DNA of 54,727 nucleotides from Candidatus Bathyarchaeota archaeon (GTDB lineage: Archaea > Thermoproteota > Bathyarchaeia > Bathyarchaeales > Bathycorpusculaceae): the NCBI GenBank assembly GCA_963815095.1, contig CAWFFH010000009.1:1-54727 (forward strand). The letters run 5' to 3'. The notes beneath the pieces are model-generated. The model was given only the letters and a program-made list of their open reading frames with translations, ran no database searches and had not been told where the DNA came from. Positions 11,283 to 37,518 of the stretch are shown in pieces. How positions within the stretch are numbered: position 1 is the first letter of the stretch; each line of letters starts with the position of its first letter. The position numbers and the translations under genes were made by a program.

Positions 11283-12566
11283 TCAGGCAGATTTGTACCT
11301 TAAAAGAGCTGCAAAGCCGCCCAAAGCCGAAAGATTTGCTTTTTCTTCTGACGTTGTAGAAATTACCTCGACAGTTGCATCAGTTTGCGAAGCCATATCT
11401 TCTAAAACATCAACTATATCTCGCTCCCGAACCTCAAAAGCGACAGAACCGCATTTCTCACATGGGCTTGCTATCATTTCTTGTGCAATCTGCGTCTTCT
11501 TATTCACTATCTTCGTTCTTGAATGCCCACATCTTTTGCAAACCACAATATCTTCGATTATATCAGTGGAATCGGTTACTAATGCAACTTGCACTTCACC
11601 CTTCTTAAGCGCGGCTAATACTGAATCTAAACCGTAAGTAGCCAAACCATCCTGTTTACTCAACGAAGTCATAAAGCGTTGCACGATTCTTTTCTCTTCG
11701 GGTCCACACATGTTGCTGAGTATTTCCGATGATTTATCAAGTACCTCTTTTAGAGCTTCTTTACTTGCGGATTGGGTGTCAACACTGTTGAGGAGCATGT
11801 TGGTTAGTTCATAGTGAAGAAAATCACCCTTTAGGAAATCATTTTTTGTTTGGCCAGGTCCCCCCGCAATGAGCACGTTAACTTTGTTTTCGAGAAATTC
11901 TTTAGTTGCATGTTCGGCTATCCTGTGGAAAAAACCTACTACTGCCATGTCGCGTTCTCTTTCATAGCGTCTTTGGCTTGAACCGCCTTTTCCTGATTTT
12001 CCCGAAACGCCTGACGAAATATTCTCTATTTTTTCGATGTGTTCACCGTTGAGTACCCCAAAGCTAGCCTGCTTAGAATCCAAAACGAGAATCCCAACAA
12101 TTTTTTGGTCTCTGAGCATTTCCCTTAGCGGCTCTAAGTGAAAATGGTCATCAACCGCATAGAAATAGTTGGTTACTGGCTCAGGTGGAATCAGCTCTTC
12201 AACGCTTAAAACTTCTTTGCCGGCTTCGTCAGTGAGGAATGTTCCAGCAAATACTGCTAACCCATTCTGTGGAATTTCCTTCTGCTGCTTCAAATGCTGT
12301 ATAACAGCCTTAAGAGCGTTTTCAAAACGTTCCTTAAATCGCTCAGATTCTCTGAAAGATGTATCTGATTCCTTCTTGAGGGTCGCAACTACTCGATCAA
12401 TCGAAGTCGTAGAAGGTATGTATAGAGATATGAATTCCTTACTCATTCCCTCTTTATTAGATAACCAAGCTATGCGCTTTCGGAGTTTGTGCTGTTTCAC
12501 CGAATTAGTGGTTGCCATTTGACAGGCAGAGAAATGGGTGGCTTTTTCAGTAACCAAATTTGGCAC
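11283..12566 (-). CDS. Peptide chain release factor aRF1 paralog with degenerate motifs
   Basis: eRF1 three-domain layout (FISLYIP, NGLAVFAG, GGPGQTKNDF, LGGFAALLRY), Zn-ribbon insert; GGQ reads GGS. Confidence 0.85.
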   Translation of the reverse strand: MPNLVTEKATHFSACQMATTNSVKQHKLRKRIAWLSNKEGMSKEFISLYIPSTTSIDRVVATLKKESDTSFRESERFKERFENALKAVIQHLKQQKEIPQNGLAVFAGTFLTDEAGKEVLSVEELIPPEPVTNYFYAVDDHFHLEPLREMLRDQKIVGILVLDSKQASFGVLNGEHIEKIENISSGVSGKSGKGGSSQRRYERERDMAVVGFFHRIAEHATKEFLENKVNVLIAGGPGQTKNDFLKGDFLHYELTNMLLNSVDTQSASKEALKEVLDKSSEILSNMCGPEEKRIVQRFMTSLSKQDGLATYGLDSVLAALKKGEVQVALVTDSTDIIEDIVVCKRCGHSRTKIVNKKTQIAQEMIASPCEKCGSVAFEVRERDIVDVLEDMASQTDATVEVISTTSEEKANLSALGGFAALLRYKSA

Positions 12567-13777: not shown

Positions 13778-14128
13778 TTATTTACTTATATGTGCGGATA
13801 TCAATTGGTTTATCTCACTTTCAAGCGGCACAAATGGCATTTTTTGCACTACATGGTATTTCTTAATCAAAATAACTTCTAAGCAATGCATAAGTTGAAA
13901 ATCATGATATGCTTGAACCATAATGTTTCTTTTGCCATTCTTCGACTTACTTTCGTTAAGAAACTTTACAACCTTACCATTATCAAAAAGGTCAACGTGG
14001 CTACTTAGCTGATTGATAGCCTTGCGCCTTCGGTTGATGGTTTCTAAAGTCAAAGAGGTTTTTTTTAAAAGAAACTCACGGAATACAATGTGTTCTTGAG
14101 TGGTGCAGAGGGTTAGATCTAAACCCAC
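13778..14128 (-). pseudogene. Tyrosine integrase remnant (N-terminal part, no catalytic domain)
   Basis: Ends in MPFVPLESEINQLI, resembling the linker before the catalytic domain of archaeal integrases; ORF starts inside the tRNA-Leu 3' copy. Confidence 0.55.
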
Positions 14129-14129
14129 G
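14101..14129 (-). repeat. att-like degenerate copy of the tRNA-Leu(CAG) 3' end
   Basis: TGGTGCAGAGGGTTAGATCTAAACCCACG vs 37431-37459 TGGTGCAGAGGGTGGGATTTGAACCCACG: 25/29 identical, same orientation. Confidence 0.85.
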
Positions 14130-14307: not shown

Positions 14308-15939
14308 CAGACTGTGTGAAAAGTCTCTTTTTATGCTCGCTACTTACCGTTAAGCTTAAAGCTAGCTTTAGAACAACTGAAAAGCCATGAGCGAACATGT
14401 AAACGGACCACACAGAGACCAAACAGTGCTGTTCCCAGACACCATCGACAAGTATGTCGACAAAGAAAATCCAGTAAGGTTCATCGATGCCTTCGTAGAC
14501 AGCCTCAACATGGAAAAGCTCGGCTTCAAACACTCAATCCTAGCAATCACAGGAAGACCATCTTACAATCCCTCAGACATATTGAAGCTCTACATTTATG
14601 GTTACCTTAACCAGGTGAGATCTAGCCGAAAACTTGAGAAAGAGTGCCATCGTAACGTTGAAGTCATGTGGCTCATGAAGAAACTTGCTCCAGACTTCAA
14701 AACCATCGCTGACTTCAGAAAAGACAACGTAGACTGCATCAAAGGAGTATTCAAAGAATTTGTTTACCTATGCAGAAGCCTAGATCTTTATGGAGCTCAA
14801 CTAGTTGCGATTGATGGAACCAAATTCAAAGCGGTCAATTCCAAGAGCAACAACCTCAACGAGAAAACAGTCGCTCAAAGACTCAAGCAGACAGAGGAAA
14901 AGATAGCACAATATCTCAATGAATTGGACCACAATGATGCGGACGATTCAGCTGAAGATGAAACAGTCAAGACTGATGAGCTCGAGGAAAAAATAAGCCA
15001 GTTGGAAGACAAGAAGCAGCAGTACGAGCATATTCAGGAGCAGATGAAGACCACAGGCCAAAGGGAGGTTTCTCTTGTAGATCCGGATAGCCGCTTGATG
15101 CGAGTGGATAGTCAACGGCTTGAAGTTAGCTATAACATTCAAGCGTCAGTTGATGCAAAACAGCACTTAATCGTTGATTATGACGTGATAAATAACTCAA
15201 CTGACCATCATCAACTCACAAAGGATGCTTTAGTGGCAAAGGACACTTTGGGTGTGGATACGCTTGATGTTTTGAGCGATAAGGGCTTCTACGTTGAGAA
15301 AGACATCGCTGACTGTGAAGATAATGGCGTAACAGTGTTTATGCCCATTCCTAATGTTTTTAGCCCATACAAAAGCATTGGAGTTCCCGAGCCTGAGTTC
15401 TATTCGGACCGATTCGTTTACAATGATTCTAAAGACGTGTATGTTTGTCCCGTAGGCAAAGAATTGACGTTTTGTAAGTGCGTGTACAGAAATGACCCTC
15501 TGCGAGGCAGGGTTTACAGGACGGTTGGTTGTGCTGTCTGCACTTTCAGGAGCAAGTGCACGAGGAACAAACGTGGAAGGACAATGGTTAGGTCCAAGTA
15601 TGATGGCGCTGTTGAACGTCTCAGATTAAGGTTGCAGAGTTGTGAAGGTAGACAGAAGCTTGGTTTGAGGAGGCAGATAGTTGAGCATCCGTTTGGAACC
15701 ATGAAGCGGGCGTTCAATCAGGGTTACTTGCTTTTGAAGGGTCTGCGGAAGGTTAAGGGAGAGGTTGGATTTACGATGCTTGCTTACAACATGAGACGAG
15801 TCATCAACATTTTCGGGGTTGGAACGATAATAAATTTGATGAAGAAGTAGAAAAGAGAAAATAAGTAAAAAAGACTTGCAGGCAATAGCTCTAATTCTAA
15901 ATGCCCTTAGGATTTAACTCTGAGTTTTAATACAGTCTG
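14308..15939 (+). mobile_element. IS1182-family insertion sequence
   Basis: IRL CAGACTGTGTGAAAAGTC and reverse-complemented IRR CAGACTGTATTAAAACTC (15/18); 4-bp TSD AAAT at 14304-14307 and 15940-15943. Confidence 0.92.
14387..15850 (+). CDS. IS1182-family DDE transposase
   Basis: GRPSYNP, SSRKLE, PDFKTIADFRK, IDGTK, DPDSR, DKGF, VEHPFGTMK. Confidence 0.95.
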   Translation: MSEHVNGPHRDQTVLFPDTIDKYVDKENPVRFIDAFVDSLNMEKLGFKHSILAITGRPSYNPSDILKLYIYGYLNQVRSSRKLEKECHRNVEVMWLMKKLAPDFKTIADFRKDNVDCIKGVFKEFVYLCRSLDLYGAQLVAIDGTKFKAVNSKSNNLNEKTVAQRLKQTEEKIAQYLNELDHNDADDSAEDETVKTDELEEKISQLEDKKQQYEHIQEQMKTTGQREVSLVDPDSRLMRVDSQRLEVSYNIQASVDAKQHLIVDYDVINNSTDHHQLTKDALVAKDTLGVDTLDVLSDKGFYVEKDIADCEDNGVTVFMPIPNVFSPYKSIGVPEPEFYSDRFVYNDSKDVYVCPVGKELTFCKCVYRNDPLRGRVYRTVGCAVCTFRSKCTRNKRGRTMVRSKYDGAVERLRLRLQSCEGRQKLGLRRQIVEHPFGTMKRAFNQGYLLLKGLRKVKGEVGFTMLAYNMRRVINIFGVGTIINLMKK

Positions 15940-16481: not shown

Positions 16482-17288
16482 GTGATTGATACTTTGCCAA
16501 TCGAGATTACTTTAGAACTGAAGTCAGATAAAGAAATAATTCTGCCACACTTTACAGGTCATATAGCGCATGGTTTGTTTTTAAATATCGTTAGCGGTGT
16601 TGACCCTGCGGCTGCAAAAATCCTGCATGAGTTAAATGTTACAAAACCGTACAGTGTTACACCTTTTCATTTTAATAACAGTTGTCAATTGGAGAAAGGT
16701 TCCTTGGTAAATCCTGCTTTTCCCGGTCATGTATGCTTTAGGTTTTTGAAAGATGAAGACTCTGGGCTGTTTTTTGATTTCTTTCGCAAGGGAAATGAGT
16801 TGTTAATTTTTGATTCGATATTCAGAATTACTTCTTTGAAGGTAGTTTCAAAAAGTTATAACGAATTGGAGAGAGAATCGGAGCCAGTTAGCACAATTAA
16901 ACTTACTTTCAGATCACCAACCTATCTTGCAAATTTGGGGAGTGATTCCCACTGGATGTTTCCTGATCCATCAAGGGTTTTCACAGGATTAATGCGTCGC
17001 TGGAATTTGTTTACTGATGGAAAACGATTTTCTAAGGACGATTATTTTGAGTACAAAAACTGGTTGAGCAAACATTCCTATGTTGGCCAATATGATTTAA
17101 GGACTATATTTGTAGCTACAAAGACAAAGAAAACAATAGGATTTGTTGGCTGGATAAAATACGAGTTCAAAGATAATGAATACCGCTGGAAAAATACAAC
17201 GAGCATGTTGGCAAAATATGCTGAGTTTGCAAACGTCGGAGGAAATAGAACAAGCGGTTTTGGCGTTACGAATTACGCAAATCACTAA
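16482..17288 (+). CDS. cas6: CRISPR-associated endoribonuclease Cas6
   Basis: LHE...KPYSVTP, FRSPT, GFVGW, C-terminal G-loop VGGNRTSGFG. Confidence 0.92.
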   Translation: MIDTLPIEITLELKSDKEIILPHFTGHIAHGLFLNIVSGVDPAAAKILHELNVTKPYSVTPFHFNNSCQLEKGSLVNPAFPGHVCFRFLKDEDSGLFFDFFRKGNELLIFDSIFRITSLKVVSKSYNELERESEPVSTIKLTFRSPTYLANLGSDSHWMFPDPSRVFTGLMRRWNLFTDGKRFSKDDYFEYKNWLSKHSYVGQYDLRTIFVATKTKKTIGFVGWIKYEFKDNEYRWKNTTSMLAKYAEFANVGGNRTSGFGVTNYANH

Positions 17289-17345
17289 AATGAAAAAAAA
17301 TTAAAGGGAAACGAGAGCACCTAAAAATTAAAACTAACAATTCAG

Positions 17346-19278
17346 GTGAAAATGAATGGACGATCTGATTCCCGAATTACACGACATAGGGAAATTAGTC
17401 GATATGCTTTTACTCAAAACGTTAATTGCAAAAAAACGGGATATCCTTCCGAAAGATTTTTTTTTAAACACGATTGGCGTCTAATTATTGATGGAAAAGA
17501 ACAAAATTACGACTTTAAGACAGTATTTGGAATTAGCGAACCAAATAATTCTACATGGAAATGCATCAAATCACATCACAAAGAAACATGGACTCCTGAA
17601 GTTGGTATTCTTCGTATTGCAGATAGGCTGGCATCCGCTTTCTCACGTTCATTGACCCCAGACGAGATAAGAAGACAAAAGGTAATGCCTGTGAAGAAAG
17701 GAGTTCACAAGCTTTGGAATCCAGATTATGAAAAAAGCGGTTTAAATTTATTATCATCGCCTGAAGAAATTCAAGGTTTAATTAAATTTGTGAATCTTGG
17801 GGACTTTGAATCCTTTGTAAAGGTTCATGATCCTTTATTGAATATGCGCCCTGAAGATTTTTCTCCACCTAATAATATAGTCAGCTTAAAGACTCATCTT
17901 ATTCTCGTAGGAAAATTTTATAGAATATTTGAAAACAATCTTAAAATCGAGGATAATTTCCCTTCATTTGAAGGAAAAAAAGCAAACAGCCTTAAAGATG
18001 CAGAAAATAAGTGGAAATTAAAAATTGTAAGATGCAAAGTTGGCTTTCCTCAGAAACCAGTCAGAGTCAAAGATCTAAAAATACTTTTGATTTTAAAAGA
18101 AAAAATGGACGCTATTAAAAAAAGGGATCAAGCATTCCCATTTTCATCTGATGAATTCTTGTTGGTACTCCCTTCAAAGGATAGGACAGAAGATATTTTG
18201 AAGATTTTTACTGAAGCAGGTTTCTTCGTTGAAATCACATCAGTTGAGGCTTCAATAGGAACCTTAAGTCCAAACCCGCAGAAAATAATTGCCAAATATT
18301 TGGAAGAATTGAAAACAGATACCGAAATTGTTGAATATAAAAAAGAAATACCTGAACACAATCGAAAAAAGCTGATTTTTGAGCTGCAGCAAGAAACTTT
18401 CCAGAAATTTGACGAAACGAGACTATATTGGGATTTAAGCTCGCAGATCACGCCAGAAATTTGTGAAGTTTGTCAAATGGCGCACGCTGACGTTTTGTGG
18501 AGTAATGAAAACGAACAAATTACAGAAAATATCTGCGCTCGATGTTCTCAAATAAGAACTTCGAAAGAAGTGCTGAAGAAACTGGCGTCATGGAGTGACG
18601 AACCCGAAATTCAGGTTTACTGGTTGAAAATTAGACTGGTGTTTGATGAATTATTGAAGATTCTCGAAGAACTGTACTCGGGGTATCTTAATAGTATCGG
18701 TCTTTCGAATTTAAGTCCTAATCTCACCTTTTCAGTTTTTGAAGAATTCCATCAAGATTTCAATAATTTCTTGGTAGATTTTAATGAAAAATTGAAACTT
18801 CAGTTTTCCGAACTTAATGTGGAACGCCCAATAGACGATTTATTCATAATTAAGAGAGAGAAATCTTCCGTAATACTTAGCATTCTCGCATCATTCAATG
18901 ATTGCTTTAACCGCCATTTTCCAGAATTTAAGCGGATTAGAAAATCCCCAATAAGACTCGCCATCACTATTTCGGGAGTGAAATTTCCATTTTTGGAGCA
19001 TTGGAGACTTCTAAACAATTCTGAAAAAGAAATATCGGTTATTTTTGTCACGGGTGGACAGCTATCAATGAACGTTGACAAGCTAGATGAACTTTTAAAC
19101 AAAACAATCAAAATAATATTACCCAACAGAACACTTCTACATCGGCTATCCGACATGGCAAACGTTTCAGAAGCACTAGGCAAGAATCGAATTGTTTGAA
19201 CACGAAGAGAAACTTCGCCTTCCGGCAGATATAGATTTTGAAAGCATCAAAGCTCTAGTAAAGATTTTGGATGATTAA
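17346..19278 (+). CDS. cas10: Cas10-like large subunit (HD motifs present, palm lacking GGDD); C-terminal frameshift
   Basis: H...KHD...SHH...ADRLAS HD motifs; CEVC/CARC Zn finger; SSDEF and PIDDLF at the palm positions; ORF stops at 19199 while another frame continues to 19278. Confidence 0.75.
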
Positions 19279-19280
19279 CA

Positions 19281-20201
19281 ATGTTTCTTGAATATAAAAT
19301 AGAATCCAAAGCACTAATTATGGGGGAACGAATTAAAGAGGGCACATTCAGGCCATCTTGCTCAACTATTCCATACAGCCAAATCAGCGGTGCCTTGAAA
19401 AGTTTACTGGGTTATCCTGATATACACGCCACTGGAGTAATTGACAATTTTAAAATCGATTACTTTACCTATATGCCACTTGAAAAGATTACAAAAATAA
19501 ACAAAAAATCATTAACCGCCGAAGTTCTCACCCAAGTTATAGGACGAGTATACATAATCAAAAATGAGTATGTAAGTACTAATTTACCGAGGAAATTTGA
19601 ACTTTCTTTGGGAGGGTTACGTACGAAGGGTTTTGGTGCTTGTGAACTGGAATTAATAAAAGAAGTTAGCAATCCCAAAATTAGCAGAGGAATATTAGCC
19701 ACTAGACTTCCGTGTTCTTGCCTTGATTTGTTTATGATAAAACCTGATTCCATTATAAAACCCTTTTTTGGATATGTCTTTAAACCAATTACCGATGCAT
19801 CTGGAATTTATGTTAAGTCAATTTTCGAAGGCTCCGAAGTAATATGTCCTCAGTTTTTGTTAAAAGAAACTATTCTCAGTAAAGCACTACCCTCAATGGA
19901 TAACATAGAAAAAATATTGAAAGAGATTCAATTCAACAAGAAAGTTAATGAGACTAGATTTACGAATAGATTCTTGAGTGCAGTTAGTTCTATTTATGAG
20001 AAGAAAGGTTATGGGGCAGTTTGGGTTTTTTTGCAGAACAAAGCGAGGCTTCATGAAAAGAGTAGTGAAGCTGAGGCACTATTAGTTATAGTTGATATGG
20101 TAAAAAGGGCTGAGTTACCTTCAGGTATAGGAGGTTATATAATAAAAAAGATTCCACTAATATTGAAACTGGGAGAAGCGGCAAAAGATGCTGAGAACTA
20201 A
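19281..20201 (+). CDS. Cas5-group RAMP fused to a Cas11-like small subunit
   Basis: TIPYSQISGAL and G-loop LGGLRTKGFG in the first ~200 aa; ~100-aa helical tail from the internal ATG 19896. Confidence 0.7.
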   Translation: MFLEYKIESKALIMGERIKEGTFRPSCSTIPYSQISGALKSLLGYPDIHATGVIDNFKIDYFTYMPLEKITKINKKSLTAEVLTQVIGRVYIIKNEYVSTNLPRKFELSLGGLRTKGFGACELELIKEVSNPKISRGILATRLPCSCLDLFMIKPDSIIKPFFGYVFKPITDASGIYVKSIFEGSEVICPQFLLKETILSKALPSMDNIEKILKEIQFNKKVNETRFTNRFLSAVSSIYEKKGYGAVWVFLQNKARLHEKSSEAEALLVIVDMVKRAELPSGIGGYIIKKIPLILKLGEAAKDAEN

Positions 20202-20934
20202 GAAAATTAAGGTAGTTCTTGAAACTCAAGGACCTTTCAGAATTGGAGGTAGAAAAGATCCGTTTTCTGGACCGGAACTGCCAGTTATTAAACTTGGAAA
20301 TCAGGTCGTTATTCCAGGCACATCTCTCAAAGGCGCGCTGAGAGAACAAATAGAAAGGTATCTAATTACCGAATTTGCCAATAATCCAGATATGAAACCC
20401 TGTGTTCCTACTAGTGGAACAAGTTTGTCTTTAGACGAACGCTATTTAATAAATAGAGGGACTTATAGAGGACCAACTTGTCACTATCCATGTTCCCATG
20501 AAGACAGTATATCACCTCATGGAATTTGTCCAGTTTGTTACTTGTTGGGCGCTCAGGGACTTGTAGGTTTTGTTACTATACCTTTTCTTTATACTAATAC
20601 TGTTTATGGTGAATTGCCTGCAAATCGAATCGATAGGGCAGCTAAAGTGGTGGCTGCAGGTAATCAGCGCTTCTATCAATTAATTCCAAACGGCACGAAG
20701 TTTGAAGGAATTCTGAAAATTTTGATAGAGGATCCCCTTAGGGATTGGAAGTTTGGAAAAAAAAGGCCTCTTCAAGAAAATACTTTAGGAGATTTATGGT
20801 TGTGCAAAAATGATCTTGGTATTGAAGAAATCATAGGAAATTTCATTTTGGACCGGCTAAAAAGTATAACAGTATTGGGTGGACTAAAGTCCAGTGGTGC
20901 AGGGGAGGTTACTATAGACTGTAAAGAAATATAG
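20188..20934 (+). CDS. Cas7-group RAMP (Csm3-like)
   Basis: PFRIGG, IPGTSLKGALR, CPVCYLLG, NRIDR, LGGLKSSGAG. Confidence 0.9.
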   Translation: MLRTKKIKVVLETQGPFRIGGRKDPFSGPELPVIKLGNQVVIPGTSLKGALREQIERYLITEFANNPDMKPCVPTSGTSLSLDERYLINRGTYRGPTCHYPCSHEDSISPHGICPVCYLLGAQGLVGFVTIPFLYTNTVYGELPANRIDRAAKVVAAGNQRFYQLIPNGTKFEGILKILIEDPLRDWKFGKKRPLQENTLGDLWLCKNDLGIEEIIGNFILDRLKSITVLGGLKSSGAGEVTIDCKEI

Positions 20935-20940
20935 TTGCCA

Positions 20941-20957
20941 AGAAATATATTTAATAT
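20941..20957 (+). promoter_or_regulatory. Putative BRE/TATA promoter of the mini-array
   Basis: AGAAATATATTTAATAT ending ~17 nt before repeat 1. Confidence 0.45.
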
Positions 20958-20973
20958 GAAGTATGCGATAATT

Positions 20974-21071
20974 GATTTTAATCCCATTATCGGGAATTGC
21001 AAGTAGTTAGTTGACGACCATCAGGGTCAGTTTAATAAATATTAGTTAATCCCATTATCGGGAATAGGAAA
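20974..21071 (+). CRISPR. CRISPR mini-array: two 30-nt repeats, one 38-nt spacer
   Basis: GATTTTAATCCCATTATCGGGAATTGCAAG (20974-21003) and TTAGTTAATCCCATTATCGGGAATAGGAAA (21042-21071); 20-nt identical core, TCCC/GGGA hairpin, ATTGCAAG 3' handle; 39 nt after the cas7 stop. Confidence 0.85.
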
Positions 21072-21453
21072 AAAATTTTGTTTGTTTGCCATTTATCTTT
21101 TTTCGATTTTTGTTTTATCCGCTCTTACTGCATACTCGCTCTTTGATCAGTTTTTTCAACTAATAATTTTTCAAAATGCAATTCTATTTATTTCCTTTAT
21201 GGTCTTTTTGGTCGCGTGGCTTAGGTCGATGAGAATGTTTATCTTATTTAATTTGAATTCCATCAGGAAAAACAACATTTTCAAACCGCAATTCGCCTCT
21301 CTCCTTCGATAATTAGTAAATTGATATGCAGATAAATTTTCTCAATAACCCCTTGTCTTAATATGCGGACAATAAAGACAATTCACCTGAGTAAATAGAG
21401 AAAAGAGGGTATACCCATAGGTAACTCCCGGAGTAATCCCCCCAATGCCTCCT

Positions 21454-21491
21454 TATAGGCACCGTTACCTATATAGGCATGGTTCCCTATG
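21454..21491. promoter_or_regulatory. Iterated palindrome TATAGG-N8-CCTATATAGG-N8-CCTATG (copy 1)
   Basis: Read directly; same pattern at 22801-22838. Confidence 0.65.
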
Positions 21492-21507
21492 TTTTGATGG
21501 CGAAAAT

Positions 21508-22743
21508 ATGCAAGAACCCCCATTCATAGTCGGTAGGCCAGTCACAGGGGAGTACTTTGTAGACAGAGAAGACGAACTACATAGGCTTCAGACACTTGTT
21601 GAAGGAGTCCAAAAAGGGGCATCCAGCAACATAGCTTTAATTGGTTTAAGAAGAACAGGGAAAACATCCATTTTAGAAAACCTTGGCGTTCTGCTGAAAC
21701 CGAATACAAAACTTATTCCAGTAACTGTAAATTGCTATGGAATAGCCGCGAAGAGTCGCCTTGCCAAAGTACTAGTCGACACAACAATCGAAAGCTACGT
21801 TTTTAAAACAGGTGATAACGCCTTTCTAACACGAATAAAAAAGGCAATTGGTGAATTTAAGAAATCGGCACTTGCCCAGATAAGTGAAGTGAAATTTGCC
21901 GAGTTTTCTTTAAAGCTTCAAGACAGGAACACAGAGGAAGACATCCTCCTTGAGGACGCTCTGCAGTACATAGAAGCTCTGGCTTTAGAAAAGGAAGTAT
22001 TCTTTGTAGTAATGCTCGACGAATTTCAAGATGTTACCAGATGGGGAGAAGACACTCTCAAGAGGATTCGTACAGTCGTGCAATCACAGAAGAGAGTATG
22101 CTATGTCTTGTCGGGTTCTGCAACAAGTATAATGCGCGATCTAGTTTACAAAAAACGATCTCCATTTTACAGGCAACTAGTCGAAATCCCAATTAAGAAA
22201 CTTGATAAAGTGATTGCTATTGCTTTTCTTAAAAGAAGGTTCGCATGCGTGAAAATGGAAGCAACCGATGCCATTGTAGGGAAGATAGCTACTCTTTCTG
22301 ATGGTTACCCTGATTACATGCAGCGCCTTGGACTCGAACTTTACCTCTTGATAGGACCTGGGCACTCGATAGTCGAGGAAAAAGTCGATAAGGCCTATGA
22401 AGATATGGTCGTTAGTCTAGACGGAGAGTTCGATGATTACTTCAGTAATTTTTCGCCTTTAGAACGGGAAATCCTTGTTGCTCTCGCAATTGGGAATATC
22501 CAGCCAAGTGAAGTAGCGCGGGCTGTGAGAAAACCAATCGAAAACATATCAAAGACTATTACAAAGCTTATGAACTACAGTGTAATCGAGAAACCAATGA
22601 AGGGGCAGTACAGGATAACTGATCCAGTATTCGCAGACTGGCTTAACCGCCGTTTTAAGACCTTTACACTGAAAGTCGAAGCAGTTGATGAAAAAGGCAA
22701 TCAATTGAACGTTCCCTTCAAGATAGAGCAAATTGATCCTTGA
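21508..22743 (+). CDS. Archaeal ATPase (P-loop NTPase with C-terminal wHTH)
   Basis: PFIVGRPV, FVDREDEL, Walker A GLRRTGKT, Walker B MLDEFQ, LSGS, DGYP, Y-x-I-x-DPVF; start placed at ATG 21508. Confidence 0.9.
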   Translation: MQEPPFIVGRPVTGEYFVDREDELHRLQTLVEGVQKGASSNIALIGLRRTGKTSILENLGVLLKPNTKLIPVTVNCYGIAAKSRLAKVLVDTTIESYVFKTGDNAFLTRIKKAIGEFKKSALAQISEVKFAEFSLKLQDRNTEEDILLEDALQYIEALALEKEVFFVVMLDEFQDVTRWGEDTLKRIRTVVQSQKRVCYVLSGSATSIMRDLVYKKRSPFYRQLVEIPIKKLDKVIAIAFLKRRFACVKMEATDAIVGKIATLSDGYPDYMQRLGLELYLLIGPGHSIVEEKVDKAYEDMVVSLDGEFDDYFSNFSPLEREILVALAIGNIQPSEVARAVRKPIENISKTITKLMNYSVIEKPMKGQYRITDPVFADWLNRRFKTFTLKVEAVDEKGNQLNVPFKIEQIDP

Positions 22744-24337: not shown

Positions 24338-25600
24338 TTGTCTGGTAATCTGCCAAACACAAAAGTGGACACTAAAGATCCAGGGGACATAGTTCAAAAC
24401 AGGTTTAGATTCCAAGCAGCCTTCGCTGGATATACTTCACTACGACTTCTGGGCAACAATTCGGAATACGAATGTGTTTACTGCGAACAGCTTGAAGACG
24501 TCTTGGTTAAGCTAAAGAATGGGTTGTTTACAGGCATACAGGTCAAAACCAAAGACAAGTCTCAGGGACCATTCAGGTTTAATGACGATGAAATAATGCA
24601 AAGTATAAAACGTTTTGTTAAACACGAACTTGAATTTCCCGATTCTTTTTCAAACTACATCATCAGCACAAACGCAGGGTTTACATCAGGAACAAATGAT
24701 GACAATCTAAAACTAATTTTGGAAACTGTAAAGAAGCATAAAGCTTCAACCAAATGTCTAAAAGAATTAGACTTTTCACAGAAATTGGAAAAGTTGAGCA
24801 AATTAGCGAACTGCAAAAAAAGCCTATCTCTTTCTGTTCTCAACAAACTTGGCGTAATCGATTGGGCAGATTTAGATAACTATAAGACCATTCTTGCGCA
24901 CGACATTGGAGTTATAACCGGAAATGCCCACCAGCCGTCTTTTATTCTTGAGGCAATTGCAGAGGAGCTTATTACCCTAACCTCAAAAGCAGCCTGCCGT
25001 TCAACTGATTTAACAGAACCATCCTACTACAAATTACTTAGAGCACCTGAAGCCGCAATTTCCGATTCGGTCTTAGCAAATAAACGAATCTCGTTGGACA
25101 TGGTTGATGCATGTTTAAACAAGCATTTGCACTCAGTCATTACATTGCAAAGCATTGGTCCCAGCCCAATTTTGCTTAAACCCAAAGGCACAAAGATAAT
25201 GGAAATTAAAATGAAAGAGGGTTGCGTCAGCGCCGAAAACATTGAATTAATGAAAGACAACAACTATTCTGCTCGCAGACTTTTTATTGGCTGGCTTTAT
25301 AAATGGGGAAAGACTGAAGCTGAACGCCAAGCTGACCATCTTTCACTTCTAGTTAGAAATGATTGCCAAGAAGCAAAGGATTCAGCTGAGAATGAAGCTT
25401 CCAAAAGAGGCGCCGCTGCTTATGGGGCTGAAATGTTACAAGATATCCGTGAGAGATTGAGAAAAAGTCATTCCACATTATTGAGTGGCTATGAAGACCT
25501 CCAATATCCACACTTATTAGGAATTGCGGGGGTTCTTACCGAAGAATGCAAACTGTGGTGGAGCAAACAATTCCCTATCGAGAAACAGGAGAATTCGTAA
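24338..25600 (+). CDS. Lamassu LmuA-like effector: Cap4/DUF4297 endonuclease plus ABC-3C C-terminal domain
   Basis: RFRFQ, CEQLEDVLV, GIQVKTK nuclease motifs; C-terminal GIAGVLTEECKLWW. Confidence 0.82.
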   Translation: MSGNLPNTKVDTKDPGDIVQNRFRFQAAFAGYTSLRLLGNNSEYECVYCEQLEDVLVKLKNGLFTGIQVKTKDKSQGPFRFNDDEIMQSIKRFVKHELEFPDSFSNYIISTNAGFTSGTNDDNLKLILETVKKHKASTKCLKELDFSQKLEKLSKLANCKKSLSLSVLNKLGVIDWADLDNYKTILAHDIGVITGNAHQPSFILEAIAEELITLTSKAACRSTDLTEPSYYKLLRAPEAAISDSVLANKRISLDMVDACLNKHLHSVITLQSIGPSPILLKPKGTKIMEIKMKEGCVSAENIELMKDNNYSARRLFIGWLYKWGKTEAERQADHLSLLVRNDCQEAKDSAENEASKRGAAAYGAEMLQDIRERLRKSHSTLLSGYEDLQYPHLLGIAGVLTEECKLWWSKQFPIEKQENS

Positions 25601-26154
25601 TGGATCTTTTCAAAACATTAGCTGATCTTGAAGAAAATCCGAAATTACACCTATCTCGGCTCTTAGTGTTGCTCAGGGCATTTGAAAGCAAAAAAGGCGG
25701 TCAAGGTATCGACGGTAAAACTAAGCTAGTTAAGCTCGATTTTCTACTTAGGTACCCTGTCTTTTTAGAACGTGCGCTCAAAGAAAAGGAAATTCCCGAA
25801 AACACTATTGCAGTAATGGATTATGAGCGCAACAGCATTGAGTCGACAATGATACGCTATCGCTTCGGCCCATGGGACCCCCGTTACGACACCTTTATCA
25901 ATTTGCTCATCGGGTTGGGACTGTGCGCTCTGACCAAGGAGAATCGCATGGTTTACATTGGTCTAACCCAGAAAGGATACGAAGTGGCGACCCAACTATC
26001 AAAAGCTGAGGAATTTGAGAATATAACCAATCGAGCGCAAGTATTAAAAAAGCACTTTGACCAAGGCGGCACCAGCCTCATGCACTTTATTTACGATACG
26101 TTCCCAGAAATTGTTTCGCTAAAATCCGGGGAGACTATAAAGTATGAATATTAA
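25600..26154 (+). CDS. Lamassu LmuC / ABC-3C middle component
   Basis: KLDFLLRYP, RYRFGPWDPRY, wHTH-like LTQKG; TAATG overlap with the upstream gene. Confidence 0.78.
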   Translation: MDLFKTLADLEENPKLHLSRLLVLLRAFESKKGGQGIDGKTKLVKLDFLLRYPVFLERALKEKEIPENTIAVMDYERNSIESTMIRYRFGPWDPRYDTFINLLIGLGLCALTKENRMVYIGLTQKGYEVATQLSKAEEFENITNRAQVLKKHFDQGGTSLMHFIYDTFPEIVSLKSGETIKYEY

Positions 26155-28090
26155 ATTTAAGACGCTTGCCTTAACTTGCAAGCAATCTAAAGAGATTATA
26201 GATTTCTCACCAAGATTATCACTTTTCTATGGAAAAATGTCGTCAGGTAAATCCACTATCGCCCGTCTAGTGGACTACTGCCTAGGCGGTGACCTGCAGC
26301 GTACGACAGCAATTGGTAAAGAGCTTACTTCAGTCCAACTTGAAGCAACGATAGGGCAATATGACGTGATTTTTGAGCGACCTGAATCCGGTTCAGACCA
26401 AGTCCAAGTAACATGGACGACTAAAGATGGGCTATACGGTAGCGTGTCGGCACCCACAGGAAGTTCACAAACGCCGATATGGGAAGGAAACATCTGCAAT
26501 TTGAGCGATCTCCTCTTTTACTTCTTAGGTGTTGAACCTCTAAGAATACCCAGTTCCCAATCTTCTGAGCAACAACAACCGGTACGTTTGAGCTTCCGAA
26601 ACTTTATGTGGTATTGCTACCTCCAACAACACCTTTTAGATTCATCATTCTATTGGCTTAAAACAGAATACAAGCAGAGAAACAGTCGCTATGTTCTTGA
26701 TTATATTGTAGGTGCATATAGCGACAAGCTATCAGCCCTCAAAACAGAGATAGGGAAAATCAAGGACGAGAAAAGTAGGAAAAAAACGGAGATCGAAAGC
26801 ATAAGACCGTTTTTGGAGAAATTTGGTTATAGCTCCGAGGATTTGCTGTTAAAGGAAATAAAAACTGAAGAAGAGACCCTATTCCAAGTCAACGCGGAAT
26901 TAGCGCAGATAAAAAAAGGGTACACCAGTGAAACACATTTTGTAGATGAACTCAGACATCAGCTTAGATTATTGGAAAGCGACCTGTCTGATCGTGAGGA
27001 AGCGTTAGGAGACATACGAAAAAGAATCAATGAGCAAACGACTTTGAAAGCTGAACTTATTGCCACCAAATTCAAACTCGTACGTTCGGTATCAGCTACA
27101 AACATTCTTGATAATGTTAGCTTCGAAATATGCCCTTCTTGCGGAGCCAAAATTGAAGAGACAATTGATACCGAAACGGATACTTGCCATTTGTGCAAAC
27201 AAACGCATCCCCAGCAAAGCGAGGTGAACGCTGCAAAGGCTGATATAGTTAAGTTGGATCTCGACGCTAGGATTTTCGAACTTGAAGATTCTATCAATCG
27301 TCAGACGAAGGAGCAAGAAAAACAAAAACAAGAGTACTCAGAACTTAGAGTTAAGAAAAATGCTATGGACTCAAAACTTGCTGAGGCACTAAAAACATAT
27401 GATTCCAACTTTCTGGCGGCATCTCGCCAAATGGAGCGCAAAATAGCAGCTTCCGAAGAAAAAATTCAGAACCTAAGAAAATCAGCAATGATGCCAAGAG
27501 CGGTAAATGCTCTCGAAGACGAGATAATGAACTTGGACGCCAAAGAACAAAAACTTAACTTGGAATTCGAGAGAGAGAAAGACACATTTATCACCGCCGA
27601 AGAACTGATAAAAGAAATCGAAAAAAGCTATTTGAATGCTCTAATCGCTATTGGCCTTCAAGGCGTTAATCCAGACGACAAAGTAGAAATTGACAGAACC
27701 TCTTGGATTCCGTATATTTTAGAGCATGGAAACAAAGAACATGCCTGGGATTTCTTCAACGCGGGAAGCGGTGGAAAAATGACAATTCTCAATGTGTGCT
27801 ATGCGCTTGCAATACACAAAGTAGCTGCCGAAAAGAAATTACCACTTCCTAATTTCCTTATAATCTACTCCCCAATGAAAAACGTTGGAAAGGGCGTAAA
27901 CCAAGAGGTCTTTGAAGCTTTCTACAAATATCTCTATAGTCTTGCCTTGGGTCCATTGGCTGATACGCAGTTGATAATACTAGAAACTGATTATGTTGAA
28001 CCTCCTGAAGAGCTTCCAAAAATGGTTAGAAAAATGACTCCTGATGACCCTAATTTTCCGCCGCTGATCCGGTACTACCGAGGCCCCTAA
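26144..28090 (+). CDS. Lamassu LmuB-like SMC/Rad50 ABC ATPase
   Basis: Walker A GKMSSGKS, YLQQ, coiled coils with CPSC/CHLC, signature GSGG, Walker B region FLIIYSP. Confidence 0.85.
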   Translation: MNIKFKTLALTCKQSKEIIDFSPRLSLFYGKMSSGKSTIARLVDYCLGGDLQRTTAIGKELTSVQLEATIGQYDVIFERPESGSDQVQVTWTTKDGLYGSVSAPTGSSQTPIWEGNICNLSDLLFYFLGVEPLRIPSSQSSEQQQPVRLSFRNFMWYCYLQQHLLDSSFYWLKTEYKQRNSRYVLDYIVGAYSDKLSALKTEIGKIKDEKSRKKTEIESIRPFLEKFGYSSEDLLLKEIKTEEETLFQVNAELAQIKKGYTSETHFVDELRHQLRLLESDLSDREEALGDIRKRINEQTTLKAELIATKFKLVRSVSATNILDNVSFEICPSCGAKIEETIDTETDTCHLCKQTHPQQSEVNAAKADIVKLDLDARIFELEDSINRQTKEQEKQKQEYSELRVKKNAMDSKLAEALKTYDSNFLAASRQMERKIAASEEKIQNLRKSAMMPRAVNALEDEIMNLDAKEQKLNLEFEREKDTFITAEELIKEIEKSYLNALIAIGLQGVNPDDKVEIDRTSWIPYILEHGNKEHAWDFFNAGSGGKMTILNVCYALAIHKVAAEKKLPLPNFLIIYSPMKNVGKGVNQEVFEAFYKYLYSLALGPLADTQLIILETDYVEPPEELPKMVRKMTPDDPNFPPLIRYYRGP

Positions 28091-37430: not shown

Positions 37431-37518
37431 TGGTGCAGAGGGTGGGATTTGAACCCACGAACCTCTGGAGGATAGGCTCCTGAAGCCTACGCCTTTGACC
37501 ATGCTCGGCGACCTCTGC
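37431..37518 (-). tRNA. tRNA-Leu(CAG)
   Basis: GCAGAGG acceptor, TAGGC-TTCAGGA-GCCTA anticodon arm, long variable arm, GTGGG-TTCAAAT-CCCAC, ACCA end. Confidence 0.96.

Follow-up and report, generated by a model that had tools for sequence, protein, structure and literature searches.

Examination of a 54,727-nucleotide (nt) stretch of DNA from a Candidatus Bathyarchaeota archaeon (contig CAWFFH010000009.1 of assembly GCA_963815095.1, here contig C9 and, over its whole length, the window) revealed a compact CRISPR-Cas locus of subtype III-F, made up of four co-directional open reading frames (ORFs) and an array with a single spacer. The assembly amounts to 2.69 Mb in 9 contigs and is 98.45% complete by marker genes. 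The four ORFs, with lengths in amino acids (aa) and profile E-values, are the following:

16482-17288, + strand: cas6, 268 aa with a GTG start; Pfam CRISPR_Cas6 PF10040 (5.5e-16), PADLOC Cas6d (2e-25)
17346-19199, + strand: cas10f main ORF, 617 aa from GTG or 615 aa from the ATG at 17352; without the HD dyad and the C-terminal tail
19281-20201, + strand: cas5-cas11 fusion, 306 aa; PADLOC Cas5_IIIf (4e-51, residues 2-197) and Cas11f (1e-21, residues 206-295)
20188-20934, + strand: cas7f, 248 aa; PADLOC Cas7_IIIf (1.5e-55; the best Csm3 model scores 1.4e-17)

Among these ORFs, Pfam and NCBIfam recognised only Cas6 and the RAMP/Csx7-like Cas7, and the comparison with reference III-F was made through PADLOC profiles. 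The best profile for the Cas10 ORF was Cas10a/Cas10f (2.7e-82), its sole match at E <= 0.1, and III-D profiles scored far below III-F profiles on these proteins. Because all four effector profiles (Cas10f, Cas5_IIIf, Cas11f and Cas7_IIIf) are strong and specific to III-F, the locus is, as judged from its profile matches, a genuine subtype III-F interference module. Only one RAMP (PF03787) locus exists in the assembled genome, which gives the single Cas7 typical of III-F; the genome-wide search for cas6 likewise returned this gene only, and no Cas2 was found in the assembled genome. A preliminary description of this DNA had proposed a III-F-like locus with the order cas6-cas10-cas5/cas11-cas7, a one-spacer array behind it, a single Cas7 and neither cas1 nor cas2 in the window, and all of these points held. 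It had also put the locus forward as the best candidate for an undescribed system, which is not supported, since the III-F passages of PMC8036902, PMC11229360 and PMC12669027 already classify the subtype and predict it to cleave DNA and to be free of signalling.

The one-spacer array and its spacer

The array lies downstream of cas7 and consists of three elements:

20974-21003, + strand: repeat 1, 30 nt, ending in the handle-like ATTGCAAG; starts 39 nt after cas7
21004-21041, + strand: single spacer, 38 nt
21042-21071, + strand: repeat 2, with a 20-nt core identical to repeat 1 and both ends degenerate; a T-rich tract follows

The two repeats are spaced 68 nt apart, and by chance an exact direct repeat of 20 nt with a spacing of 55-85 nt is expected about 1e-6 times in 54.7 kb. 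The mini-array has the features of a CRISPR array with predicted processing: a 3' handle of the Cas6 type, the usual spacer length and an orientation on the strand of the cas genes. Beside other III-F loci, 16 arrays have repeats that end, as in the window, in GATTG, AATTG or ACTG plus an AAAC/G-type handle on the cas strand, and the window repeat matches 20 of 25 bases of a III-F-linked array repeat in a genome from the host's family (L059). Rfam gave no match in 20900-21500. A 76-aa ORF at 21082-21312 is not counted as a gene, since the related strain L006 has a 1-nt insertion inside it.

No further copy of the repeat core is present in the assembled 2.69 Mb, where k-mer scans found no array of at least three repeats either, unassembled arrays being common. 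The sole Cas1 signal in the genome is a 147-aa ORF on contig C3 (1319456-1319698; L003 1477-1920; 6.6e-11), which aligns to the C-terminal third of Cas1 only (positions 199-282 of 283) and looks like the remnant of a lost adaptation module. Around this fragment, neither an array nor another cas gene was seen.

The same array is found in L006, a metagenome contig, with four of the 38 spacer bases changed, three of them at the first three positions. Contigs from two public sequencing runs of different studies, X1 and X5, also reach the array. An X1 contig spans 21010-21200 and has the spacer part 21010-21041 unchanged; an X5 contig joins 20978 to 21047, leaving one repeat and no spacer, in a strain whose cas10f has the in-frame A8 run and the single G described below. 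The spacer is old: diverged strains have inherited it, and one of them has lost it.

Searches for a target covered the host genome and several collections. In the own genome the longest exact match is 13 nt, which is chance level, and the best ungapped match is 24/38, against 24-26 for 20 shuffled spacers; self-targeting and CreTA-like partial complementarity were rejected because own-genome matches do not exceed this level. No protospacer was found in IMG/VR with the full spacer or its parts, a 19-nt match in a giant-virus metagenome-assembled genome (MAG; L056) being treated as chance since it stops mid-spacer. The one match among metagenome contigs is this very locus, in a related strain, and 331 genomes of the host's family gave no protospacer with up to three mismatches in the 30-nt core. 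Phage and plasmid records were matched only at E >= 1.

Cas10f and Cas7f

A full HMMER scan returned 244 Cas10f relatives at E <= 1e-3, the nearest of which are 36-41% identical to the window protein. Forty-nine of them were aligned with P0005, a 641-aa form of the window's protein from a sibling assembly, giving an alignment of 50 sequences. At the GGDD position of the palm the window reads PIDDLF, including the PIDD that the preliminary description had noted, and the relatives mostly read ILDDF or close variants; throughout the alignment, Cas10f relatives lack the GGDD cyclase motif. This loss agrees with the statement on III-F in PMC11229360, according to which these systems are without cyclase motifs and effectors. 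The PADLOC scan, which took in 18 window ORFs, matched no CARF/SAVED effector. In the genome, Csx1_HEPN gave no match in a search whose controls responded; the controls of the SAVED and Cas_APE2256 searches were silent.

The HD nuclease part of the gene is interrupted in this assembly. The motif PE(L/M/I)HD(I/V)xK starts 49 of the 49 aligned relatives, and the main ORF of the window has unrelated residues there; the window DNA encodes the motif in the +1 frame from the ATG at 17356, severed from the main ORF. Because the alignment profile matches Streptococcus thermophilus Csm1 at LHDIGK, the window's PELHDIGK is the catalytic HD dyad. Three features mark the breaks in reading frame:

17356-17484, + strand: short +1-frame ORF, 42 aa, carrying the HD dyad PELHDIGK as part of the N-terminus conserved in the Cas10 family
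17430-17436, + strand: A7 run, the 5' frame break of cas10f, where the two frames meet; one more A in the X1 and X5 contigs
19180-19278, + strand: cas10f tail at the 3' end, 32 aa, shifted out of frame by an extra G at 19179/19180

The main ORF keeps 35 of the 40 columns conserved in at least 90% of sequences, and the five lost are exactly those of the out-of-frame HD motif; once the +1-frame dyad is included, the DNA still encodes 40/40. The HD-domain residues H40, HH75-76 and D91 are kept in the main ORF. Of the HD motifs named in the preliminary description, SHH and ADRLAS were confirmed, and KHD proved to consist of the conserved second histidine H40 and a non-conserved Asp. The intact HD domain that it had assumed is not what this assembly encodes, the dyad being out of frame.

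Several sequences bear on whether these breaks are real. The in-frame A8 occurs in both X1 and X5, each time in a single contig of low depth (3.1 and 4.6), and a related 98-aa fragment (P0134) reads through the site of the A-run in frame. The 1-nt insertion at 19179/19180 removes the last 33 residues relative to the 641-aa forms in sibling assemblies; two of these, P0005 and P0006, read through the 3' site, and an X5 contig has a single G there. The sibling-assembly proteins P0005, P0006, P0007 and P0008 are near-identical and differ from one another by indels only, which suggests consensus errors in a strain-heterogeneous region. The 5' break is common to three sibling assemblies, P0005, P0006 and P0007 all beginning with MNGRSD. 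Pieces from the identical strain X3 (100% identity) reach neither 17430 nor 19180, and parts of 18700-20100 are uncovered in most runs. From these comparisons, the present copy of cas10f would be either misassembled at two points or one that has recently lost its nuclease.

In Cas7, the window has Glu (Glu30) aligned to the Asp of the DNP motif in III-D Cas7 (8bmw_G) and Csm3 (4qts_C), an Asp which we take to be the catalytic residue of Csm3/Cas7. In a 30-sequence alignment of Cas7f the nearest clade, Methanoperedens included, has Asp here, and elsewhere the residue is His, Glu, Asn or Lys. Comparison of cas7 with strain L006 gave a synonymous divergence (dS) of 0.27 and a nonsynonymous divergence (dN) of 0.044, and the resulting dN/dS of 0.16 indicates purifying selection.

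Other genes also vary among strains. In another strain, represented by a 2168-nt Logan contig, cas5-cas11 is split into ORFs of 148 and 155 aa (P0009 and P0010) by a 1-nt insertion after the R142 codon, outside any homopolymer. In an X1 contig, 16490 is followed by an additional G that would give cas6 an ATG start two codons inside the GTG-started ORF of the window; cas6 appears intact in both strains, with differing start codons. The non-coding stretch behind the array (21072-21470) is 96.5% identical to L006 (504/522 bases), while the adjacent cas7 has a dS of 0.27, and the X1 and X5 contigs differ from the window by 2-4% in cas6 and downstream and by 6.6-9.3% from mid-cas10 to cas7. Either the locus is a mosaic or its flanks are constrained.

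Genomic setting and other III-F loci

The locus lies within a stretch of about 23 kb bracketed by a tRNA-Leu gene and a copy of its 3' end, in agreement with the mobile island that had been proposed as its setting. This stretch holds an IS1182 transposase, the III-F locus, an ATPase with a winged helix-turn-helix (wHTH) region, a Lamassu system and a DDE transposase, and housekeeping genes sit outside it. Its landmarks are:

14101-14129, - strand: degenerate direct copy of the tRNA-Leu 3' end, 25/29 bases matching; distal island edge
14387-15850, + strand: IS1182-family transposase, NCBIfam NF033551 (5.2e-116); 630 nt upstream of cas6
21445-22743: archaeal ATPase, 432 aa, PF01637 (1e-09), with a C-terminal winged-helix region; after the array
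24338-28090: Lamassu, with LmuA carrying a Cap4 nuclease (Pfam 1.3e-23, PADLOC 1.2e-19), LmuC (1.1e-15) and LmuB (1.3e-88)
37431-37518, - strand: tRNA-Leu(CAG), bracketing the island on the other side

No integrase was recognised in the island among the ORFs scanned, the Pfam scan having covered 28 of the window's 59 ORFs that are 80 aa or longer. The IS1182 copy is single in the genome, so its ends are not definable by comparison. The Lamassu system is complete and starts 3.3 kb downstream of the array. Just outside the island, a full-length aRF1/eRF1-type gene (TIGR03676, 3e-104) occupies 11283-12566 on the - strand, and at positions 1-70 the contig begins inside a tRNA gene with its 5' part cut (Rfam tRNA, 44.3 bits), the assembly breaking at the tRNA. 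Over the whole window, Rfam recognised two tRNAs only.

A profile-guided scan with one genome per species identified 42 other III-F loci in archaea and bacteria. The order cas10-cas5-cas11-cas7 is kept in all 30 of those in which both Cas5 and Cas11 domains were found, and the two domains are fused in four of these 30, namely three Methanoperedens MAGs (L019, L031 and L010) and an uncultured archaeon (L007). Arrays of at least three repeats occur within 8 kb of 17/42 loci, some of them at contig ends, and a further locus (L026) has three repeat copies by k-mer count. Their repeats are mostly 37 nt long and end in GGATTGAAAC. A cas1 gene is found near 15/42 loci, with cas2 or cas4 alone near two more, and a cas6 near 12/42, of the Cas6b type in eight and of the window type in four. 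One such locus, L019, reads cas6b-cas1-cas2-cas4, 63 repeats, cas10, cas5/11, cas7, cas6b. The preliminary description had suggested looking among homologous loci for single-spacer arrays: none of the 42 has a complete stand-alone two-repeat array, the two-copy matches lying at contig edges or not being CRISPR-like. The ATPase-wHTH gene and five other neighbouring ORFs of the window have no counterparts at the 42 loci and were not counted as accessory genes.

In a tree of 33 Cas10f proteins, built without III-A, III-D and III-H references, the window forms a long lone branch (1.21) within one of two main clades, which also holds the fused Methanoperedens group; the Cas5-Cas11 fusion may have had a single origin. 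Within the host's family, a Cas10f relative was present in 3/200 other sampled genomes (33-35% identity), and in 0/10 of the same genus. Two of the three III-F loci of this family (L058-L060) have cas1/cas2 adjoining, and one has an array. A single-protein search for close Cas10f loci in genome contigs returned none, and a word-indexed protein search returned its own cluster only.

III-F is treated in the classification and review texts PMC12669027, PMC11229360, PMC8036902, PMC8616872 and PMC11127173. The window shares with III-F as classified the one Cas7, the lost cyclase motif, an encoded HD domain and the lack of adjoining adaptation genes. It differs in the fusion of Cas5 with Cas11, the cas6 in the operon, the one-spacer array after cas7 and the frame-broken cas10f. 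In their passages on the subtype, PMC8616872 states that a cas6 homologue had yet to be described, PMC12669027 has most loci without arrays, with exceptions, and PMC8036902 gives "DNA?" as the target, along with the name of the reference locus. The frequencies of arrays (17/42), cas1 (15/42) and cas6 (12/42) found here suggest that III-F loci in MAGs carry these elements more often than the statement that most lack arrays would imply.

The nearest counterparts in architecture are the loci of Methanoperedens (L019, L031, L010) and of the archaeon L007, which have the same cas5-cas11 fusion, gene order, major Cas10f clade and Cas7 layout. Unlike the window, Methanoperedens-type loci carry cas6b, from another Cas6 family, together with cas1-cas2-cas4 and, upstream of cas10, arrays in which a 37-nt repeat occurs 57-63 times; their Cas10 is 30-34% identical to that of the window, and their Cas7 keeps the Asp of DNP where the window has Glu. 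These fusion loci may already be in the III-F locus lists behind PMC12669027 and PMC11229360. Subtype III-H, as outlined in PMC12669027, is a distant archaeal relative of III-F that likewise combines an inactive palm, an HD domain predicted to be active and the absence of an adaptation module. There, however, the place of the Cas10 C-terminal domain is taken by a diverged Cas11, whereas in the window Cas11f lies at residues 206-295 of the Cas5 ORF and the alignment with the III-F family runs to the final residues of Cas10f. A precedent for a Cas5-Cas11 fusion in a type III effector is the III-Dv system of Synechocystis, which is of another subtype and has several fused Cas7 domains; in the literature searched, as far as its texts were available, "Cas5-Cas11" occurred in III-Dv or Synechocystis work only. 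Archaeal viruses, according to PMC6858448, also carry arrays of one or a few spacers without adaptation genes, comparable to the window's one-spacer array on a mobile-looking element, but these mini-arrays use host Cas proteins against rival viruses, while the window array follows effector genes of its own.

Reduction, decay or a dedicated guide

We regard it as likely that the locus is a reduced III-F module with a frozen one-spacer array, set in a tRNA-Leu-linked island and seemingly eroding in this lineage; it adds a member, reduced and probably decaying, to an already classified subtype. Complete III-F loci elsewhere carry cas1/cas2/cas4 and long arrays, and reduction from such loci best explains the own cas6 and the one-spacer array; the fusion is common to a small group of archaea. 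Related strains differ in the lesions they carry, a scatter that indicates continuing erosion. The cleanly conserved coding sequence, together with the selection on cas7, shows that the locus worked until recently, and it may be functional today. The preliminary description had named an eroded ordinary locus, recognisable by a long array with the same repeat and by cas1/cas2 elsewhere in the genome, as the finding that would speak against its proposal; the lesions and the arrays of the relatives come close to this picture, although this genome has no long array.

In an intact copy, Cas6 would cut 8 nt before the end of repeat 1 and release one CRISPR RNA (crRNA), on which the Cas7 subunits, Cas5-Cas11 and Cas10f would assemble. 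Pairing with a complementary transcript would then turn on the HD nuclease of Cas10 against nearby single-stranded DNA. Cyclic oligoadenylate would not be made, because the palm motif is lost. Processing of the crRNA, assembly of the complex and DNA cleavage are predicted here.

Several points weigh against reading the locus as a reduced and eroding defence module. The frame breaks in cas10f may be assembly errors, sibling assemblies differing from one another by indels only. The X1 and X5 contigs used in the comparison are each single and of depth below 5. With Glu in place of the presumed catalytic Asp of Cas7, RNA cleavage is uncertain. No target of the spacer was found in the collections searched, so a role in defence is an assumption. 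The literature searched held no experiments on any III-F system, only classification and review texts. Finally, the purifying selection on cas7, the persistence of the spacer in three strains and the lack of another array would also fit a maintained single-guide function.

It is possible, if unlikely, that decay is already complete and the locus is a dead relic, with cas10f a pseudogene, the array a fossil and the selection signal a trace of the past. Two frame breaks fall in one gene of 1.9 kb while ORFs of up to 909 aa are intact elsewhere in the window, the 5' break recurs in three sibling assemblies, and independent lesions occur elsewhere (the spacer loss of X5 and the cas5-cas11 frameshift outside a homopolymer). 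An insertion sequence directly upstream and an adaptation module reduced, genome-wide, to a Cas1 fragment would suit such an end. Any inactivation must, however, be very recent, since all 40 of the most conserved Cas10f columns are still encoded; the dN/dS of cas7 and the intact cas6, cas5-cas11 and cas7 of the window also speak against a relic, and the 3' indel, which varies among sibling assemblies, resembles a consensus error.

It is improbable that the effector is kept, apart from adaptive immunity, for one fixed RNA target, for example that of a persistent mobile element, of a competing island or of a regulatory role. Such a hard-wired module would account for the same spacer in three strains (the window, L006 and X1) whose cas genes differ by about 6-9%, for the selection on cas7, for the own cas6 of the locus and for its place in an island, in an assembled genome with no other array to supply guides. 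Yet no target was found in the own genome, IMG/VR, metagenome contigs, the 331 family genomes and phage and plasmid records, the spacer changes (4/38) about as fast as the cas genes, the X5 strain lost it while keeping in-frame cas10f sites, and 0/42 other III-F loci have a complete stand-alone two-repeat array. The sole positive evidence that would favour a dedicated single-guide role is the retention of the spacer. The preliminary description had claimed a dedicated fixed-target module; this is unsupported because no target was found, because III-F loci of other species often have long arrays and cas1/cas2/cas4, and because related strains carry differing lesions.

A more elaborate version, in which a lineage with neither another array nor adaptation genes maintains the III-F effector under purifying selection for one vertically inherited guide against a single transcript, with HD possibly toggled by A7/A8 slippage and an HD-less form that only binds, is slightly more doubtful again. 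If true, the HD-less form, with its dead palm and the Glu in Cas7, would be a natural binding-only type III complex. Least probable, and very much so, is a switchable HD nuclease as such, in which A7/A8 slippage with phase variation, or -1 recoding at A_AAA_AAA, toggles between HD-bearing and HD-less Cas10f: the break does fall exactly in a homopolymer that is A7 in the window and A8 in relatives, the main-ORF ATG at 17352 lies 4 nt upstream of the HD-frame ATG and makes an HD-less protein possible, and a weak hairpin follows the run (17437-17451), but recoding is not conserved, given that the relatives are plainly in frame, the hairpin has only five pairs and abuts the run without the usual spacer, and A7/A8 differences are the commonest sequencing error. 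Signals for -1 frameshifting usually have a spacer of 5-9 nt before the hairpin.

As for the reduced and eroding module, the last stage in the loss of an array is a better reading of its single spacer than a novel mode of action would be. The locus itself opens no new question, and its significance is modest. III-F is nonetheless predicted to be a signalling-free type III system that relies on HD alone, and the window locus together with its in-frame relatives offers cas6, three effector genes and one guide as a compact natural set, which might suit a first reconstitution. In addition, the survey refines the textbook view of the subtype: III-F loci in MAGs often have arrays, cas6 and adaptation genes, and the Cas5-Cas11 fusion marks one archaeal branch.

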